From the IMG/VR virus record IMGVR_UViG_3300017917_001562, positions 44,582 through 108,581 of that record: a DNA stretch of 64,000 nt; one strand, given 5' to 3'. This DNA is from a virus. Below the pieces are notes generated by a model. The model was not told the DNA's origin. It saw only the letters and a program-made list of their open reading frames with translations, and searched no databases. Shown here piece by piece: positions 17,442 through 49,910 of this stretch (position 1 is its first letter; the number at the start of each line of letters is the position of its first letter). The position numbers were made by a program, and so were the translations under genes.

Positions 17442-18290
17442 TTATGATCCGCAGTTATTAACACATACAGGATGTGTTAAATCTAACTCATTATAAAGTA
17501 ATTCTGCGACATTGTCAACATCATCTATTGTTGATTTGTAACAGCATGTGCTAAATTTGCCGTTAGCAGCCAAATAGATGCCGGGCTGAGTCAAATGCAT
17601 ACAATTTTCTGTCAAAACCTTTTTGTTATTTAGATTAAATTTTATAAGAGGTAAAATAGTTTTTGGTGGAAATAACTTATAATCATTTCCTGTGCGATAA
17701 TGTTTTACATTTTCTATATTTCTTGACGATTTTACAAGTTTAAATTTTTTAAAACCTAATTTTTGACTTAGCTTTAAGCAATCTTTAATTTGATGTTCGT
17801 TGTGTTCAAAAGGAATAAATTGCCATGTAGCTGTACCACCCGATTGTATAAATGCTGTTGCGTTATTAATGATTTTTTCATATGAAGTGCCTTGACGATA
17901 TATTTCATGAATTTTTTCTAATCCATCAATGCCAAACCATACATCGTGTTCGATATCAGATAATTGTTTAGCGAAATCAGACCACCACTTAACAGACCTT
18001 AAACTACCATTGGTATGGATTTGTATTTTTTTAACATACTTTTTTGCAATATCTATAAATTGGTTTATTTTACTTGCAGCAATAGGATCTCCAAAATTTC
18101 CACACAGTTGAATTGCATAAAGATTTTTAAGTTGTTGTAAAGTGTCTTCAAAGATCTTTGTATCTAAATCTTGTTCAGTAATAAAATCAGAAAGACCAAA
18201 ACCGTTATTGTTTCTGGGGCATTGTGGACACCATGCATTACATTTACTTGTTGGTTCTACATGCAACCATTTTACATCATTGAGAGTCAT
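17442..18290 (-). CDS. radical SAM protein
   Basis: CxxxCxxC (CNAWCPQC), GNFGDP, HTNG, C-terminal Cys cluster. Confidence 0.85.
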   Translation of the reverse strand: MTLNDVKWLHVEPTSKCNAWCPQCPRNNNGFGLSDFITEQDLDTKIFEDTLQQLKNLYAIQLCGNFGDPIAASKINQFIDIAKKYVKKIQIHTNGSLRSVKWWSDFAKQLSDIEHDVWFGIDGLEKIHEIYRQGTSYEKIINNATAFIQSGGTATWQFIPFEHNEHQIKDCLKLSQKLGFKKFKLVKSSRNIENVKHYRTGNDYKLFPPKTILPLIKFNLNNKKVLTENCMHLTQPGIYLAANGKFSTCCYKSTIDDVDNVAELLYNELDLTHPVCVNNCGS

Positions 18291-18558
18291 TATACAAATT
18301 TGACCAAACTTTTAGTTTTTCAATCTTATTATACTTTGCTTTATTTAGGTTGTCAAGGTCAAGTATGCCTTTTTCTATTAAGATATCAACTAAGGCCAAC
18401 ATGTCACCAATTTCCAATTCTAGCATTTCTTTGTGCAGCTGACCTGTTTTATAGTGTTTGGTATCTAAACCAAATCGTCGTATCTTACTGACTTCCACAA
18501 TAACTTCAGCACATTCTTCTTGCAGAATGCCCAATGCTTCTTCGACTTGTTTGTTCAT
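18277..18558 (-). CDS. MazG-like NTP pyrophosphohydrolase
   Basis: EECAE...EIGD acidic motif. Confidence 0.75.
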   Translation of the reverse strand: MNKQVEEALGILQEECAEVIVEVSKIRRFGLDTKHYKTGQLHKEMLELEIGDMLALVDILIEKGILDLDNLNKAKYNKIEKLKVWSNLYNDSQ

Positions 18559-25956: not shown

Positions 25957-25997
25957 ATATTCTCCTGCCTAAATTATAAGATTATTTAGGTCTTGTG

Positions 25998-26594
25998 TCA
26001 ATGGATAATTGTAATTTTTCTTAAGTCTGGATATTCTACATATACAGGCTCAGTGCTTTGATATTTGGCCAACAATTCGATTCCTCGTTCAGCTTCTTCT
26101 ATGGTAGGTCTATAATGATAACCAATTCGGAATGTTTGCTGTTGTGGCCAGGGTGTAATGTTTAAATCTCTTCCATCGTAACGCATTTGTCTTAAATGAT
26201 CGTATTCTTCTACATCATCTAATAAAATAGCACCACCACGACCAATGTTTAGAGGCTTACCGTGTCCGAAACTCAAACACATTAACGAACCTGGCCTATA
26301 CATATCTTGCTCCAGTCGTCTAGCAGTATCTAAAATTCTAGTGCCATAAAAGTAGTATTCGCCCTTCCAAGTTTGTTGCCTTTCTTCCACAAACTGATAT
26401 TCAATACCAAGTTTGTGCATGGTCATAGGAATACTTAGATAAGTGTAGGGAGTAAATCTACATTCTTTAACTTGATCATAGCGTAAGCAAAGCTCAATGG
26501 CATGGGTACAACAGTCAGTCATTACCGCATATGGTGCGCCTGTAAATTTAGCTAACTGTTGTTCGAACTCAGCAATTTTATCGAATGTTGTCAA
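25998..26594 (-). CDS. short DegT/DnrJ-type PLP aminotransferase
   Basis: FEQQLA..TGAPYAV..CCTHAI.L, DTA, SFGHGKPL.IGRGG; about half the usual length. Confidence 0.75.
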   Translation of the reverse strand: MTTFDKIAEFEQQLAKFTGAPYAVMTDCCTHAIELCLRYDQVKECRFTPYTYLSIPMTMHKLGIEYQFVEERQQTWKGEYYFYGTRILDTARRLEQDMYRPGSLMCLSFGHGKPLNIGRGGAILLDDVEEYDHLRQMRYDGRDLNITPWPQQQTFRIGYHYRPTIEEAERGIELLAKYQSTEPVYVEYPDLRKITIIH

Positions 26595-39536: not shown

Positions 39537-39965
39537 TTATTCTGCCTTTTTATTCTTGTCTTTTTCAGTTATGGGTCCGCCTGTGATCCAAGCTCTACAA
39601 CTTCTTGCACCTGCACATTTGAAGTGCAAAAAGTTACAATAACCAATGTCAGCAATATTTATGCTGGCATTAGCATCTATGTTTGGTTCATCACCTTTGA
39701 TACCATTGGCTATGCATTCGCGCATACTGTCGCTGACATCAAAGGCCGCACAGTTTGCACACTGCATGGTTTTTGCAATAGCTTCTGTAACTTTAAATCC
39801 TTTTGCAGCTTTTTTCCAATAGTCGCCGGGATTATCAGGGTTAGCAGGACCATAATTATATTCATCTATGGCCTTTTGTCTATTTTTAAGATTAATATCT
39901 ATGTTATGAGTAGCTACAGGACAATTCTTTGTAGCTGCTTCCATGATCTGTATATAATTACGCAT
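39537..39965 (-). CDS. Cys-rich hypothetical (probable virion) protein
   Basis: CANCAAF, GYC..LHFKC...RSC.AW. Confidence 0.7.
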
Positions 39966-42900
39966 ATTTACGACCTTTGCGAGGTAAACTACCAATTGGA
40001 CTGGTAGCGTTTTCGTCACCAATGGTACTAGCACGACCAGTAAAGTCACTTATCCTAACTTCTTTTAATTTAACTTCCTTAATCTTAGGAATGCCAAATG
40101 CTCGTTGTGCTTCTAATACAGCAGCAGGACCTTGCGATTCTGTTATGTACCAGCCTTGGCTATCTTGTGTCATTTTAAAATCATTGCGTAAACTTGCAGT
40201 GTCTGTGGCTTTGGGTGTAAAATAAAATCTTGTTTCTACTACACCTTGTGGTGCTTGTTGTGCTTGAACAGCCTGTTGAGGATTTTGACGGAGCATTTGT
40301 GGGGCCATTGTAGCTATGTTTTGAGCATTAGGATTAGGTGCAGTTACTGCATTTACAACTTGGTTAATTAAACTATCATGTTGTTCTAGCTCTTGATAAA
40401 CATGTTCGTTTTCTTGATCAAGTTGATCTAATTTTGGTTTTACACTATTAGCTAAAGCTGAATTTAAATTATCAATCTCTGCATTTAATTTTTCAATTTG
40501 TGCTGTATAATCTTTAACTTGACCAACTCGAGCCTGTGCTGTTTTTGCAGCCGCTTCTGCATCTTTAAACTGTTGTTCTAATTTTTCAATTGCTTTAGCA
40601 TCAACAGTTTCACCTTGCTGAACAGCCGCAATGGCCTTTTCTAGTTCTGCAATTTTATCAGCTGATACACCGGTGCCCTGTTTGTTTTGCATACGCTGTT
40701 CTAAGTCAGCGATCTGACGCTCTAGTGTAGCAGTAGCTTCGGGATCAATGTCAGGTGTGGCCTTAAGTTGATCCAGTTGTTGAGCTAGTGTTTGTAACTG
40801 AGCTTTACTGGCCTGTTGCTTTACTTTTTCTTTTTCTAATTCGCCGCGATGCTTGGTAAGTTCCTTGCTAGTAATTTCACCTTGTTCAGCACCAATGTCT
40901 GCTCGTTCACCTGCAGCCTGCAACTCTGATTTTAATTCTTTATTATAAGCCTTGGTCTTTTCTAATTCTTTGAACAATGCCACAGCCACTTGTTGTTCGG
41001 GAGGTACACCACTCAGTCTTTGTCCTTGTACAAAATTCATCATCTTTTGATAATCTTGTGAAGGGGAAGCTTTGGCTTCGTTGGTTTTCTTTTTATTGCC
41101 CCAGTTTGCTGCACCTTTTTTACGGCACTGTACTAAGGCACCTGATGCATAAGCACTTGGCCATACTTTGTAACGGCTTTTAACTTTGTGATAGCAAGCG
41201 TCTTGTTTTTCAGCTAAGATTAAATTACTAAATGCTGGACCACCACACTCTGGACAAGTTTGTTGAGCTTCTGCCACATCTTGTTGTCTACGATGAAGTG
41301 TAACTTTATGTTCACCAGGCGTTTCTTTCCTCCATTTTTGTGCGGCACCTAAACTATCAAACTTCGGACCTGGTTGAAACTCTCCGTTTTTGTCTTTGGT
41401 ATGACCACGATAGTAATGTTCTTCATCGTATGCATCTGCGTTAAATCCTTCCGCTACACCTTGCTGACCTGTTACAGCCTGCAATAGTGCTCTTGCAACT
41501 ACACGATCTTTTTCCTGTTCGTCGTTGTCTAGTTCAGAATAACTAATTTTCATTAGTTTAGCTCTTTGCTGTAGTTTAGCTTCAAGTTTTCCCGCTTGAC
41601 GAAGTTTTTCGGTATCGTCAAATTGATCAGGGTCTTGAACAAATCTCAGTGCTGTGGTATTCCAACCTTTGTGAATTGCGTCTGCAATAGCTTCAATGTC
41701 TGTTACACCAGCATCAATCATTTTTTTAGCATAAGCAGCAGATTGAAGATTGGCTTGCCATCCAAAATTGTTGCCAGGTGTGCTACGACCATAACCATAT
41801 GCTTGGTCCAAGGCTGCATCGCTGACAGCAGCTAACTGCTGTATAGATAAACTATTAGCGTTTTCTGTCATTGGGCTTTCTACTGGTTCTGCTGAAGTAA
41901 CTGATATAATTATTCCACGCCTCTTAAACTTCTTTATTGTTTTGGCTATTGCTTCTTCTTTTGAATCTGCTTTAGTTTTGGTAGAACTATGAATTGGTTG
42001 TCCAACCTGTGTATTCCATTGAAAGTTAACTTTCCAAATTGGGGCAGTGTCTACAGCCACAGTGGGTTTAGCTTGAAGCAATGCATCTTGTTGTTTTGGT
42101 GGCAACGATAAAAACTCAGTTAGTTTCATCTTCTTGCCATTAATTGTTACAAGGTTCTGTCCACCACCCGCAGTGCCACCTTCGTATTTGATCCACTCCA
42201 GTGCAGGGCTTTTTACAATAAAACTGGTTAAGAAGAATGGTTTTGGATCGTTTCGGTTAGGCGCAAGATAAGATCTTCTGGCAGGATATGTCATTGCGTC
42301 AATATGTGTAAACTTCATGCCGTTTCGTGCAAGAATGCTTGATAGTGTATCGTAGTGGTTTTGTTGGACTTTACTAAAAGTATATGTGTCAGGTTTGCCA
42401 GAATACTGTGTTGCACCAGGACTGTATATGCTGCCTTCCGCCACACCTTGCTCGAACGATTTGAACACAGAACGAGCAACTGCTTTAACCTGTTCTGGAG
42501 AAAGTTTTTTACCTAGTTGCTCCTGGGCTTGTTGATAGATGTCTTTGATATCTGGATTGTTGAAATCGTCTTCGTAGTCCCAATATGTAAAGGACACTTT
42601 GTTACCATCTACATCAAGCACATACACCATTTGATCTAAATCGTAATCTTGCTTGACAATGGCAACGCCTTCCGCCACACCTTGCGTCAGGAATGATTGC
42701 AAAGCGTCGGATCTGCTAGGATGTTTTAGTTTTCGAAGTGCCTTTGCTTCAATCTGTCTAATTCTTTCGTTAGATACTCCTAATTTTCTGGCAACATCGG
42801 CTAATGACATATCATCATAGAATCTCATGTCGATGACTGTTTTTTCAGTATCAGTTAAAGTGGACATCTGTTTGGCCATCACACGCTGCAATTCTGCTTG

Positions 42901-43605
42901 GTCATACTTGTCGTTGGGATCATAAGGTTCGTCGTATTTTGTATCATATCGATCGGCATTGTGCACCGGATCTTGCGGGTCCAGTGTAGGCATCTTATTT
43001 TTTGCACCCTTATATGTTGCGCCGTTTGGATTGTATCGTGATATCTGTTGATTAGGATTTGCTTCCGCCACACCTTCATTGGATTTTTTCTTTGTAGCAA
43101 CATTGATCGCCGCACCACTACGCTCAGGATTTGGGTCTTCTCTGCGCTTTTTAGCAGCCGCATACTTACGGCCTTTTTTGCCTAGTGCATGTGCCTTGGC
43201 CTGTGGTAAACATTTTGGTTTACCTTCACTGCTATCGCCTCTAGCACAACTACCACGAATTTCGCCATCAGGTCCAAAACGAACCCACTTTTCTTTAAAC
43301 CACTTGCGTAGATTTTCTGTAACAGGTGCTGACGAGTCTGGTTCTAAATCATTTGTACGGTCACCGCGGTAGTTTTCTAAATTGTTGACAATTTCATCAA
43401 CAGCCATATCAACATCACTCATGCTGTGAATGTCATCTGCTTCCTCAGCATAATCAATAATAGCATCACCCACTACTTCATGCCCATAACGAGTAATTGC
43501 TTCGGGATATTTTTGTTGTAAGCCGTTAAACAATATCTCAGCCAAATCAATGGGACTGATATTTTCAAATAGTTTATTGTTATTATATAAATCGTTTAAA
43601 AACAT
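39958..43605 (-). CDS. modular polyprotein-like protein (sigma70 region-4 module, RyR-like module, coiled coil); probable internal head protein
   Basis: 1215 aa; five (Q)GVAE-type linkers; [30 protein letters not shown]; IH.GW...YSEL...EQEKDR. Confidence 0.75.
41268..43076 (-). repeat. in-frame linker repeat CAAGGTGTGGCGGAAGG (QGVAEG)
   Basis: 19-bp exact copies at 42433-42451 and 42667-42685; near copies at 43062-43076, 41447-41464, 41268-41283. Confidence 0.85.
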
Positions 43606-43609
43606 CTCG

Positions 43610-46600
43610 TTACTTTCCTTGTTTAGCTAAAATGCCTGCTTGTTGTAGTGCTGTCTTAAGTGGGCCCGCCGCGGTTGGAGTTTCTGCAGCTTTTAGAACC
43701 AATGGAGTTATTGTACCCATTGCTCGTTGTTGATCTCTTGTTAAAGGCTTACCGTCATTGGCATTAACAATTGCCTGCGCCAATGCATCAGTGTTTGTTC
43801 CCGGAGGAGCAACACTGCCAATTGTATCTGCTACACCTCTTGCTGTGCTGGCATCAATGGCTTGATCTCTTTTTTGCTGTTGTTGCTGTGGTGTACCTGC
43901 TTGACTTGTTGCTTGTGTGCCCGCTGTTGTATCTTGTGCATAAGGATTGGTAGCTTGTCTTGCTGGGCTAGTTGCTTGCATTGTTGGGTTAGTTGCCAAA
44001 CTAGGAGGTTCTTCTTCCTTGATGGGCTTGTCATCTTTATCTTCAATGTCGCGCAATCTTTGCATTAATTTTCCAAGATCAACAGGACCTTGTTTCTTTT
44101 CCTGTGCTTTGGCTTTGGCTCGCAATCTATCAACTAAATCGTCAAACTCATCATAGCTGTAGCGTCCTGCAACTTTTTTATCATCGCGATTTTCTCTCAT
44201 AGCTATTTGTGTTTGTTGTGATTGTGCTTGTAATTTATCGTTATATTTTTTATCCATAGAAGCTATCCAATTACCTGCAGTAGTTGATGCTAATGCAGGA
44301 TTATTTTTGCTAAGGTATGCCATGCGTTCTTCGTGTGCAGGGGTGCCTGGAGCTCCTGCTTTTCTTGCTAATATATCTGCAACAGTTGCATTTGGCTCAG
44401 TTTTGGCAGCATTTAGTACCTGATTAGTTCCGGCAGGACCTATAAAGTGTGCGCTGTATACAGTGGCAGGGCTTACTGGAATTTTGTTTCTTTGCAATTC
44501 TGCTAAATTATTATTTAATAATTGATTTTGCATTGCTTCCTGAGTTTTAGCATCAAACACTGCATTGTCTGGTATGTCTAGTTGTTTTTTAAGGGCATCA
44601 AGAGTCGTACCTGTAAAACCGTACATACCGACAGCATTGGCTTGCCCGCCTCTGGCCTTTTGAAATTGTTGAACTTCAGACATGGTCATTTGATCTAAAG
44701 GTTTTGATTGACCTAGATTCTGTTGTGACCATTCTTCAGGAGTAATATAAGGTCTTCCTGCATTATCTTTAGCTCGCATCTTGCCACCAAAGAATCCATA
44801 GTGTCCGCTATAACTTTGACCTTCAAGCCCGCCTACTACTTTATTAAGGTTTGATCGATCTTGATATGAAAGATCGTATTCTGCAGGATTAGCAGCTTTG
44901 GCTCTAGAAACAATAATAGAATCAGTTGGATCTGCCATTCCTACATAAGCCTGTTGGCGAGGTGTAAGCTTAGACCAAGCTTCAGCTTTGGCAGGATCTT
45001 TACCAGTCCAAGGATTAACACCCGGGGCTGGTTTTGTTGGTGCAGGTGTTTGTCCTGATGTCCATGGTTCACCGGAACCACTAAGCCATGGCTGACCAGT
45101 TGTAGGTGATGTAACGGCATTGGGCGGGAGTTCAACTTTACCTGAGGATCCTGCAGGCACAGTAGGCTGTTGCGGTTTTTGTACTGGCGGTTTGGTCGTC
45201 GGAGGTTTAGCACCAGCAGTAAATCCCATTTGTTGGTTCCAATTTGCCGCAATCTTACTTAAAGTGTCACCTTTTTGTACAGTATAAATGTCACCATTGG
45301 GTGCTGTAATTTGTTGGCCTACATAAATCAAATTAGGATTTTTAATCTGCGGATTTAATTTAGCTAACTCTTGCCAAGAAGTAGATTTTAATTTACTGCT
45401 ATCTCCGTAGGTTGTAGATCTTGGATCAGTGTCACTGGTTTTTCTGCCAGATGGATCTAATCCTGTTGAACTTGGCTCCATTTGTTGTGGAAGTTCGTCA
45501 GCATCAATTTCTGGTTCCGGTGTTGTGTCGGGTTGAGTTTTTGCTGAACTGCCTGTGGGGGTAGAAATTCCTGATAGTTGTTGCAGTCTTGCAGTATTAT
45601 CATCTGTACTAGCTATTGGTTTAGCCGCTGGTTGTTTAACCAATGGACCTGCAGCTGTTGCTGGTCGTGTAGTATCAGGTTTAACAGGTGTGCTTTGAAT
45701 TTGTTTTTCTATTTCAGCTTTTTGTTTTTCTGCCTGTTGTGCTATTTGTTGATCAATTTGACGAATTACAGCTTTATGGTCCGCTGCAGTTGGCGGTTTG
45801 TATTCAATACCCGCTTCTGCACGTTGTTTAGCAAGCCATTCTGCTTCACTTTTGTTTAATTCACCTGAGTATGTACCTAATGCACCTGTCACTCCTATAA
45901 CACCAGGAATCAATCCTAAAATGTTTGCAGGTTCTGAATCTGTCCCTTTATAAATTGGTGATGGGTCTCTTTTAGGAAATGCTTTCGGATAAATGCCAAA
46001 AGGTGTGCCACCCGGTCCTTCGATAGGTTTAGTTTCTACGCCTTTATTCCAACCTGGCTTTCCAGGAACCATCTGATCAGATGTTGCACTGGGCGGTGTT
46101 GTTGTTGCTGTAGTTGTTGGTTTTGCGGCGCTAGTATCAGTTGTCTGATTAGGCTCTGCTGCCCAATTGTCTTCTTTAAACTCTTTATATTTTTCTTGTA
46201 GCTTACGCTGTATAGCAGTGTCTTTAGCTGTTTTATCTAATTCACCTAGGACACTTTCTTGTTGTTCTTCACTGCCGCCAACCATTTTATGTTTTGCATC
46301 ACTGGCCGGATCTGTGCCCATCCAGTAACCGGGAAATTTAGGACCAGTAGGATTTTTTGTAGCAGATGACATTGATTCAACAATGTACAAACTTTTTTGT
46401 ATATCAGTCATTTGTTCAAATTCTTTTAAATCTTTTAACGGTTTAAAGTCTGGTATGCCTTTAGGAGGAGTAGGTCCGCCAAAGCGCCAAAAGTCTAATC
46501 CACTGCCAATGTTATTGCCACCGGGAATAGGTATAGGCAACGGAACAGTTGGCGAAGGTTTAGTTTCACCTGGCTTAGTTGACTCCGGTTTAGATGGTGT

Positions 46601-46969
46601 TGGCTCTTGCCTGGGCCCCGGCGTTGGTTCTTGTTCTGGTCCGGGTATTGGTATAGGAGTTGGTGTAGGTATTGGCTTAACCTCTGGCCCTGGTGTTGGA
46701 GCAGGTTGTGGTTTAGGCGCAGGTGTTGGTTTTACATCGGGCCCAGGAGCAGGCTCTGGTGTGCTTGGGCGTGAAGGTGCTTCACCTGGTTTGGGTTGAT
46801 CTATCTTTGGTTGGGGTTCGGGTCTTGGTGTAGGTCTTGGCTCTGGTCTAGGAACCGGTTTTGGCGCTGGCCTAGGCTTTGGTATAGGGAGTTTAGGCAG
46901 TGCTAGCTCTGCTAATTTTTTAGCCTCAACTTCATTTAAAAAGTCCTGAAAACTTTTTTTATCGCTCAT
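43610..46969 (-). CDS. large Pro-rich virion-associated protein with LysM and lysozyme-like domains
   Basis: PEP/PTP repeats; [20 protein letters not shown] and [13 protein letters not shown]; E...Y...MT..EV...AVGMYGF..TL...FD..TQ...Y.AHF.G. Confidence 0.75.
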
Positions 46970-47547
46970 TACTTTTTAGCCTTAGGTTGCTTGTAAGTGC
47001 CGCCAAATAGTGTGCCTGTTTTGGCTTTGTTTTTAGGTGTAGGATTAACTACTGTAGCAACACTACCTGAAGACATTTCTTTTACTTGCTGATGGCCTTT
47101 GTTTGTGCCCAACAACTGTTGTTGTTTTTGTTTCAATTCCTTAAACAATTCTCCAGCTCTGGTGCTGTAACCTTCAACTTCAAGCGCATACTGGCCGATT
47201 TGTGCATCTGTGGCAGTCTTTAACCATTCATCGCTTTCTCTTTCCATTGGAGCGTTTTCTGCTATGGCCATTACATCAACTTGTTCCGGTTGCGCGGCCG
47301 CAGTCATTAACTCATATTCCATGTATTCTAACACGGTTTTTAAATAGTCATTTGCCAGTGTAATCTTACTGCTGACCCAGCCTTCTAAACCTTGGCGCTC
47401 GTCAACATTGCGTAATAATTTGTGTAGTTTCAGTGCGTACTCGGCAGCGTGGTATAGTTCTTCACGAGCCATTTGTACTTCGTGGTCTTGATGCACTGAA
47501 CTTGCATCTTCAACAAAGTTTTCGCCTAAAAAATGTGAACTTTTCAT
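46969..47547 (-). CDS. conserved hypothetical (probable internal head) protein
   Basis: DHEVQMAR.ELY...LEGWVSSKITLA.DYL; TAAATA upstream. Confidence 0.7.
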   Translation of the reverse strand: MKSSHFLGENFVEDASSVHQDHEVQMAREELYHAAEYALKLHKLLRNVDERQGLEGWVSSKITLANDYLKTVLEYMEYELMTAAAQPEQVDVMAIAENAPMERESDEWLKTATDAQIGQYALEVEGYSTRAGELFKELKQKQQQLLGTNKGHQQVKEMSSGSVATVVNPTPKNKAKTGTLFGGTYKQPKAKK

Positions 47548-47576
47548 AGTTTTATCCTGGATATTGTATATTTAGT

Positions 47577-49880: not shown

Positions 49881-49910
49881 ACTGTACTATTTCTATTACA
49901 GTATTTAGCT

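Follow-up and report, generated by a model that had tools for sequence, protein, structure and literature searches.

A region-4 cassette in a phage polyprotein

The last 64 kb of a 108.6-kb virus record in IMG/VR (IMGVR_UViG_3300017917_001562; CheckV completeness 31%), referred to here as the window, encode a mosaic polyprotein, P0001, one unit of which is a copy of region 4 of the bacterial housekeeping sigma factor. The original prediction, made from the DNA alone, placed a region-4 module at window positions 42686-43061, likened it to the C-terminus of RpoD and described it as bounded on both sides by the repeat GVAE. The peptide is real: on the minus strand these positions encode amino acids (aa) 182-307 of P0001, and the plus-strand translation of the same interval is full of stops. 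GVAE does stand on both sides, at aa 178-181 and 309-312, with the second copy lying just past the predicted interval. Coordinates of all features are collected in Table 1.

Assignment of the unit to sigma-70 region 4 of the RpoD type is virtually certain. A match to the Sigma70_r4 hidden Markov model (PF04545), proposed as a check in the prediction, was obtained for aa 247-295 with an E-value of 1.2e-17 and 63.6 bits against a cut-off of 24.1. Comparison with PDB sequences using phmmer aligned residues 56-125 of the unit with residues 538-611 of Escherichia coli sigma70, the extreme C-terminus of SigA/RpoD, and cellular SigA/RpoD proteins stop where the unit reads S-F-L, two residues ahead of GVAE. 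An AlphaFold model built with 25 homologues has five helices at unit residues 53-126 (predicted local distance difference test, pLDDT, 72-88) behind 50 disordered residues, and a Foldseek search with this model returned only sigma70/SigA chains, with about 80 aligned columns, 46% identity to E. coli and a root-mean-square deviation of 2-3 Å. The likeness to RpoD was thus borne out in both sequence and fold.

The description of the module as stand-alone also holds. P0001 and nine other polyproteins that carry the cassette showed no sigma region 2 or 3, the Pfam sigma matches in both sets being Sigma70_r4 and r4_2 alone. The module is therefore not a sigma factor, and a reading as a full sigma factor is ruled out. 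PHROGs has no dedicated family for proteins with region 4 only, all of which match the C-terminal part of the full-length sigma family phrog_351, and annotation pipelines label such proteins 'RNA polymerase sigma factor', a name that is misleading.

In front of the fold lies a conserved extension with the motif A-x-P-N-Q-Q-x-S-x-Y-N-P-x-G-x-T-Y ... M-P-x-L-D-P, which can also be written A-x-P-N-Q-Q-x-S-x-Y-N-P-D-G-x-T-Y-R. The extension gave no match to PDB sequences at E-values up to 10. Its N-P-D-G looks like a tight turn, and in several homologues it reads Q-Q-L-S-L-Y, which we take to be loosely similar to a sliding-clamp-binding motif.

The linker sites of P0001 are GVAE at aa 178, 309, 387 and 716, DVAE at aa 776 and GVVE at aa 1121. 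The four copies of GVAE compare with an expectation of about 0.017 per 1215 aa and with none elsewhere in the 36,199 aa of the record's open reading frames (ORFs). Two QGVAEG linkers (42664-42681 and 42430-42447; aa 309 and 387) are encoded by the same 18 nucleotides (nt), CAAGGTGTGGCGGAAGGC, which use GC-rich codons in a gene of 40% GC, and a third linker (43063-43077) has 13 nt in common with this DNA. Such identity suggests that recombination at the linkers may shuffle the cassettes. Searches with Pfam and PHROGs found no embedded processing peptidase in P0001.

More than 1297 mosaic relatives have single cassettes in common with P0001, and their Pfam domains include Zeta toxin, ParB, SLT, LysM, class I chitinase, nucleotidyltransferase, methyltransferase and DUF5872. 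These relatives hold up to eight GVAE copies each, with a consensus over 288 sites of K-(Q/E/K)-G-V-A-E-(G/A/E), and short leaders recur at their N-termini, for example MNLFDIFE↓S and MIIDELFE↓A (arrows mark known or candidate cuts throughout). One and the same cassette is seen behind a leader or behind an internal linker, as for the C-P-E-C-G-G unit that follows D-V-A-E in P0001.

Table 1. Features of the window discussed in the text (window positions)
Feature	Position	Strand	Basis
P0001, mosaic cargo polyprotein, 1215 aa, seven units split by x-V-A/V-E sites	39958..43605	-	ORF and translation
P0001 N-terminal leader, aa 1-14, ending L-F-E; candidate capsid-targeting propeptide	43564..43605	-	relatives' leaders and T4 N-termini
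Upstream GVAE linker, aa 178-181; predicted cut after Glu181	43063..43074	-	upstream Glu in 59/62 homologues
Region-4 module, predicted released product, aa 182-312, 131 aa, 15.0 kDa, isoelectric point 7.0	42670..43062	-	
Conserved N-terminal extension, aa 182-233, predicted disordered	42907..43062	-	homologue conservation, pLDDT ~50
Sigma-70 region 4 fold, aa 234-307 (4.1, 4.2, RpoD C-terminal helix)	42685..42906	-	Pfam, phmmer, AlphaFold, Foldseek
Pfam core of region 4, aa 247-295	42721-42867	-	
Downstream GVAE linker, aa 309-312, two residues past RpoD-like end S-F-L	42670..42681	-	motif and PDB alignment
P0002, upstream operon partner of P0001, 1119 aa, Pro-rich, LysM	43610..46969	-	leader resembles T4 IPII/IPIII targeting peptide
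Four sigma-70 consensus promoters	1231-1259, 17490-17518, 18328-18356, 25973-26001	-	motif scan
CTAAATA, possible T4-type late promoter of cargo operon	47569..47575	-	21 nt upstream of ORF at 47547
Second CTAAATA copy ahead of cargo operon	49902-49908	-	

Recurrence, borders and leaders of the module

The whole of aa 182-312 recurs as a unit in other metagenomic polyproteins, at 94% identity in P0052, 60-63% in P0122-P0125 and 42% in P0126-P0127, and also in P0023 and P0115. The recurring units begin directly behind a hydrophobic-A-E site, and region 4 may lie anywhere from aa 201 to aa 1125 in the nine other polyproteins; P0023 combines it with an SLT cell-wall domain. When 1.84 billion representatives were searched exhaustively with phmmer, 13,790 matched at an E-value of 0.001 or below and 218 at 1e-10 or below, and the extension motif was present in 52 of the best 150 cluster representatives. 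Extension carriers among these 150, added to those found earlier, bring the number of distinct metagenomic proteins to at least 62. Among the uncultured giant T4-like phages of environmental metagenomes this is a common family.

The upstream border is sharp in these 62 proteins. In 59 of them the nine residues ahead of the module motif include a Glu, which in 51 is exactly four residues away, while the other three have V-H-E↓A or M-Y-E↓A slightly further upstream. Across the 59 sites, P3 is V, L, I or M in 50 and P1' is Ala in 47. Glu at P1, a hydrophobic P3 and a mostly Ala P1' follow the rule of the T4 head protease gp21. That the module is autonomous and delimited by such sites is very probable.

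Eleven of the 62 proteins are small (139-263 aa) and carry the module behind a leader of 8-12 aa, for example MRAKEFIVE↓ANP, MRAREFINE↓AHP, MKINELIVE↓ANI and MRISELLNE↓AHP. In the T4 record, the internal proteins IPII and IPIII begin MKTYQEFIAE↓A, Alt begins MELITELFDE, gp24 MAKINELLRE and gp22 MLKEQLIAE. T4 leaders target proteins to the prohead core and are removed by gp21, which cuts after Glu (PMC5694885). Since their leaders closely resemble the T4 type, the small homologues are built like a T4 internal protein with region 4 as the mature part; in P0001 that same mature part stands between internal sites. One metagenomic protein, P0264 (199 aa), is a leader-type region-4 protein fused directly to a DUF5872-like unit, which in P0001 forms a separate cassette from aa 780 onward.

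Residues kept and lost, and origin of the module

To compare residues, we set 13 polyprotein modules beside 80 cellular RpoD C-termini (in region 4.2, residue n of P0001 corresponds to sigma70 residue n+305). A clear difference is at R584, which is Arg in all 80 cellular proteins, S, K, A, R, N, V or P in the phage modules and Asn (N279) in P0001. E585 is kept in P0001 and is G, A or R in 4 of the 13 modules. R584 reads position -31 and E585 position -33 of the promoter (PMC2613000). T583 is mostly Ser in the phage modules, R554, E574, E575 and G577 are also relaxed, and a four-residue deletion past F563 is followed by an aromatic residue. Kept residues comprise V558, R562, F563, R586, R588, Q589, K593, R596, L598, H600, P601, R603, L607 and F610. 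As a side observation, the mature N-terminus of the module is better conserved than its DNA-reading residues.

The best cellular identity of the module is 50-58%, spread over alpha-, beta- and gammaproteobacteria, and a tree from a short alignment places 51 of 64 extension-type modules together in a clade without cellular sequences (support 0.66). This limited identity and the separate clade point to an old phage lineage, and recent capture from a host is ruled out by the same range of identities across Proteobacteria.

Uncultured viral contigs (loci L007, L017, L027, L038, L005, L029, L055 and others) also encode a second, undescribed family of free-standing RpoD C-terminal proteins, about 142 aa long. 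These are nearer to cellular RpoD (18 of 21 group with cellular sequences), and in most of them R584 is retained; their N-terminal part is different and lacks a protease-type leader. Neighbouring genes include T4-like gp5 genes in two cases and a family-A DNA polymerase in one; no region-2 gene lay beside the five free-standing region-4 genes checked.

Genomic context

The closest matches of the record's family-B DNA polymerase are jumbo T4-like phages (Phosso, Atu_ph07 and Rak2/121Q-like), at 41-52% identity. Among uncultured relatives, two (G002, 342 kb, and G004) have polymerases 74% identical to it and two (G001, 352 kb, and G003, 333 kb) 62%; G001-G003 (333-352 kb) are at least 92% complete and the fourth is 68% complete. 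A T4 gp21-type prohead protease (Peptidase_S77) is encoded in all three of G001-G003, adjoining genes for a scaffold and a gp23-type capsid protein. Ahead of a conserved mature start, these capsid proteins hold candidate propeptide sites, L-A-E↓S or L-K-E↓N, in their N-terminal parts.

Module-bearing genes in relatives lie between a ClpA-like gene and the DNA polymerase gene, as they do here, and the genes adjoining them begin with similar leaders. None of the four relatives G001-G004 has a Sigma70_r4 match, so the cassette is accessory. In the two relatives with the 74% identical polymerase, the syntenic cargo island (L168, G002:C1:72000-91500; L169, G004:C1:121800-141000) consists of different, smaller genes that have GVAE, GIAE and GMAE sites of their own and no region 4. 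The island is hypervariable.

Within the window, neighbouring ORFs also start with leader-like N-termini, such as MFAHELYE. The operon partner P0002, whose likeness to the T4 IPII/IPIII targeting peptide lies in its first 15 residues, is likely to be ejected as well and to have a cell-wall-binding part. Outside the window, the same record holds a 4463-aa ORF adjoining a 1134-aa ORF and several fibre-like genes (G000:C1:3420-16811), after which comes a run of radical-SAM/SPASM-like genes.

No module was found in cultured phages. A tblastn search returned only single cassettes in cyanophages and host rpoD contamination. One match, a 'sigma factor' of a Klebsiella prophage, was rejected as the flanking host rpoD-dnaG and not a phage module.

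Promoters of the phage

The coding strand of the window carries four perfect TTGACA-N16-18-TATAAT promoters, where about 0.10 would be expected and none of 100 shuffles reached four. Perfect TTGACA-N17-TATAAT promoters of this kind indicate that part of the phage's programme relies on host sigma-70 and its normal -35 reading. Two of the four hold CCTAAATAA in the spacer, such that a late-type motif may overlap an early promoter. The extended -10 motif TGNTATAAT is not enriched (8 copies against 4.6 expected; 8 of 100 shuffles reach 8). CTAAATA occurs 16 times on the coding strand and 7 times on the other, with 8 copies within 60 nt of an ORF start.

Discussion

We have characterized a phage-encoded copy of a host sigma domain that is neither a sigma factor nor a recent acquisition. 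The best explanation of the module is a phage-adapted copy of primary-sigma region 4 that forms one cassette of a late cargo polyprotein. The original prediction supposed that the module is released from the polyprotein and acts at the moment of infection, and this part of it survives as the best reading by comparison, because a discrete cassette, protease-type borders and T4-like leaders point to release and delivery and the gene block is consistent with them. On this reading the polyprotein would enter the prohead by its N-terminal T4-like targeting leader, where a gp21-type (S77) head protease would cut after Glu in [V/L/I]-x-E sites and free a protein of 131 aa and 15 kDa that runs from A-N-P-N-Q-Q to the RpoD-like C-terminus. 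The freed protein would then be ejected with the DNA, like the T4 internal proteins and Alt, and in the cell would mimic region 4 of host sigma-70 through protein-protein contacts rather than serve as a sigma factor. That the module is packaged and ejected seems to us probable. The reading as a whole, a protease-released, virion-delivered region-4 mimic that acts by such contacts, we would hold about as readily as doubt.

What the module would do after delivery is harder to predict. It probably does not read -35 elements in a sequence-specific manner: the relaxed -35-reading residues, taken with those retained, suggest surface mimicry instead. We give an even chance to an action on some region-4 partner of the host transcription machinery. 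Our preferred partner, at a confidence that is low in itself, is the tip of the RNA polymerase beta-flap; somewhat less likely again is an anti-sigma factor or other region-4-binding regulator, for example an anti-sigma of the Rsd type. Titration of an anti-sigma factor, a form that the sigma decoy of the original prediction may take, would free sigma-70 for the phage's own consensus promoters, which make a helper role of this kind worth considering.

Several points weigh against release, delivery and mimicry. Free region 4 would have to compete with the tethered region 4 of the holoenzyme, which is unfavourable unless the conserved N-terminal extension adds affinity, as it may. The phage's own promoters make it less likely that -35 elements or the flap are generally blocked at time zero. 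The leader of P0001 is less canonical than those of the small homologues. No Peptidase_S77 or head gene was found on this 31%-complete record or on five other region-4-bearing fragments, all of these negatives coming from contigs only 8-31% complete and being uninformative for that reason; the link to the protease consequently rests on relatives that lack the cassette. A megablast search with the DNA of the 1215-aa ORF against 50,697 phage records gave no match, and no cultured relative was found. Evidence for late timing is weak, since CTAAATA also stands ahead of non-structural genes; the canonical T4 late promoter, TATAAATA, is not enriched either, with one copy against 5.9 expected. Conservation of R-I-R-Q-I-E and K-A-L-R-K-L is inflated by searches seeded on these recognition-helix words. 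Lastly, that the kept hydrophobic residues lie in the groove that binds the flap, AsiA and Rsd is our assumption.

Other explanations have to be set beside this one. The original prediction also had the module block host promoters or favour early phage promoters, and a released module that binds TTGACA-like hexamers in host or phage DNA, as promoter blocker or early-promoter marker, would fit the intact helix-turn-helix (HTH) fold seen with AlphaFold and Foldseek, the retention of R586, R588, Q589, K593 and R596, and the presence in the window of perfect TTGACA elements to recognise. This part of the prediction fared poorly and we consider it improbable. The arginine that is invariant among the 80 RpoDs is Asn here and variable among the modules, E585 is lost in some of them, and the backbone contacts R554, E574 and T583 are relaxed; isolated region 4 is in any case a weak DNA binder, and a general blocker of -35 elements would silence the four consensus promoters of the phage itself. 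An equally improbable alternative leaves the protein uncut, with the region-4 HTH binding DNA or protein inside the large polypeptide, for example to organise or anchor DNA, and GVAE acting as a flexible or recombination-prone linker. Retention of linkers at the DNA level, with 18 nt alike at two junctions, could indeed reflect recombination shuffling. This would not account for junctions that hold a hydrophobic P3 and an invariant P1 Glu as the rest drifts (GIAE, GMAE, EVAE, NITE, KVSE, TLAE), nor for a module that also occurs alone behind a T4-type leader with the same terminal site.

The module might instead belong to the phage's own transcription apparatus in the producing cell, as a gp33-like co-activator or as the region-4 half of a split sigma that works with a gp55-like minimal sigma. 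The loose resemblance between the start of the extension and a clamp-binding motif would suit such a part, and Group 2 jumbo phages do have gp55-like minimal sigmas together with gp33, which takes the place of region 4 on the beta-flap (PMC7824862). A core transcription part would not be expected to be missing from three complete or near-complete relatives and a fourth at 68%; BLASTP gave no alignment between T4 gp33 and the module at E-values up to 100, and the free-standing region-4 genes have no region-2 gene beside them. T4-type late promoters, moreover, have no -35 element. We rate this explanation slightly below the previous two, and an essential split-sigma partner is ruled out by the complete relatives without region 4. 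Far less likely than any of these is a decaying remnant of a captured rpoD with no present function. Relaxation of several DNA-contact residues is what decay would produce, but at least 62 distinct proteins, with identities as low as about 35-40%, keep the fold core and the extension, 51 of 64 modules stand apart from cellular RpoD in the short-alignment tree, and the best cellular identity does not fit a recent capture.

Delivery of a region-4 mimic has its closest parallels in the T4 internal proteins IPI-III and Alt. As in T4, the leaders are short and end in [I/L/V]-x-E↓A (MKTYQEFIAE↓A of IPII/IPIII compared with MRAKEFIVE↓A of a module homologue), and a gp21-type protease and a gp23-type capsid protein are encoded in complete relatives of this phage. 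The proposed target, host transcription machinery at time zero, recalls Alt, which modifies host RNA polymerase. Unlike the T4 proteins, the payload here is a non-enzymatic copy of a host sigma domain and not an ADP-ribosyltransferase or an anti-restriction protein, and it forms one unit of a seven-unit polyprotein with predicted internal cut sites, whose packaging we infer. Polyvalent proteins of phages and conjugative elements (Iyer et al. 2017, PMC5512222) are likewise large mosaics of unrelated effector-type domains that are proposed to travel with the DNA. They differ in that a peptidase of their own is frequent, if not universal, whereas none was found in P0001, whose repeated linker is predicted to be cut in trans by the head protease. 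Sigma is not mentioned in the text of that paper.

Cellular RpoD/SigA shares with the module the fold, about 46% identity (E. coli) and the C-terminal H-P-S-R-S...S-F-L tail. The module departs from it in lacking regions 1-3, in the four-residue deletion past F563 with its aromatic residue, in the variable R584 and in the phage-specific N-terminal extension. The free-standing proteins of about 142 aa resemble the module in having region 4 only, with no region 2, in phage genomes. The Thermus phage P23-45 protein gp39 acts on the interface between region 4 and the beta-flap, and this same RNA polymerase interface, which T4 AsiA and gp33 also address, is the likely target here. These three proteins, unlike the module, are not homologous to region 4 and are made after infection instead of being delivered by the particle. 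AsiA stops region 4 from reading -35 elements (PMC2613000).

A full-text literature search for GVAE with phage and for virion-delivered region 4 returned nothing relevant. To our knowledge, phages are known to take over RNA polymerase either with proteins made after infection (AsiA, gp33, Gp2, P7, gp39) or with a packaged enzyme (T4 Alt) or polymerase (N4, phiKZ). The logic of delivery is thus known, from T4 internal proteins and Alt and from polyvalent proteins, and the type of payload is new. We tentatively propose, at somewhat less than even confidence, a widespread and undescribed class of T4-style internal proteins, each a fragment of a host housekeeping sigma that stands alone behind a leader or as a cassette of a polyprotein, is injected, and reprogrammes RNA polymerase at time zero by occupation of the beta-flap or titration of an anti-sigma factor. 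If this is correct, a packaged non-enzymatic copy of region 4 would represent a third strategy, in which a molecular mimic of a host transcription-factor domain is delivered ahead of all phage gene expression, and this would be the first virus found whose particles deliver a copy of a host sigma domain as a mimic. The module is available in an easily testable 15-kDa form, and its sharp borders would provide a readout of head-protease specificity in phages that have never been cultured.

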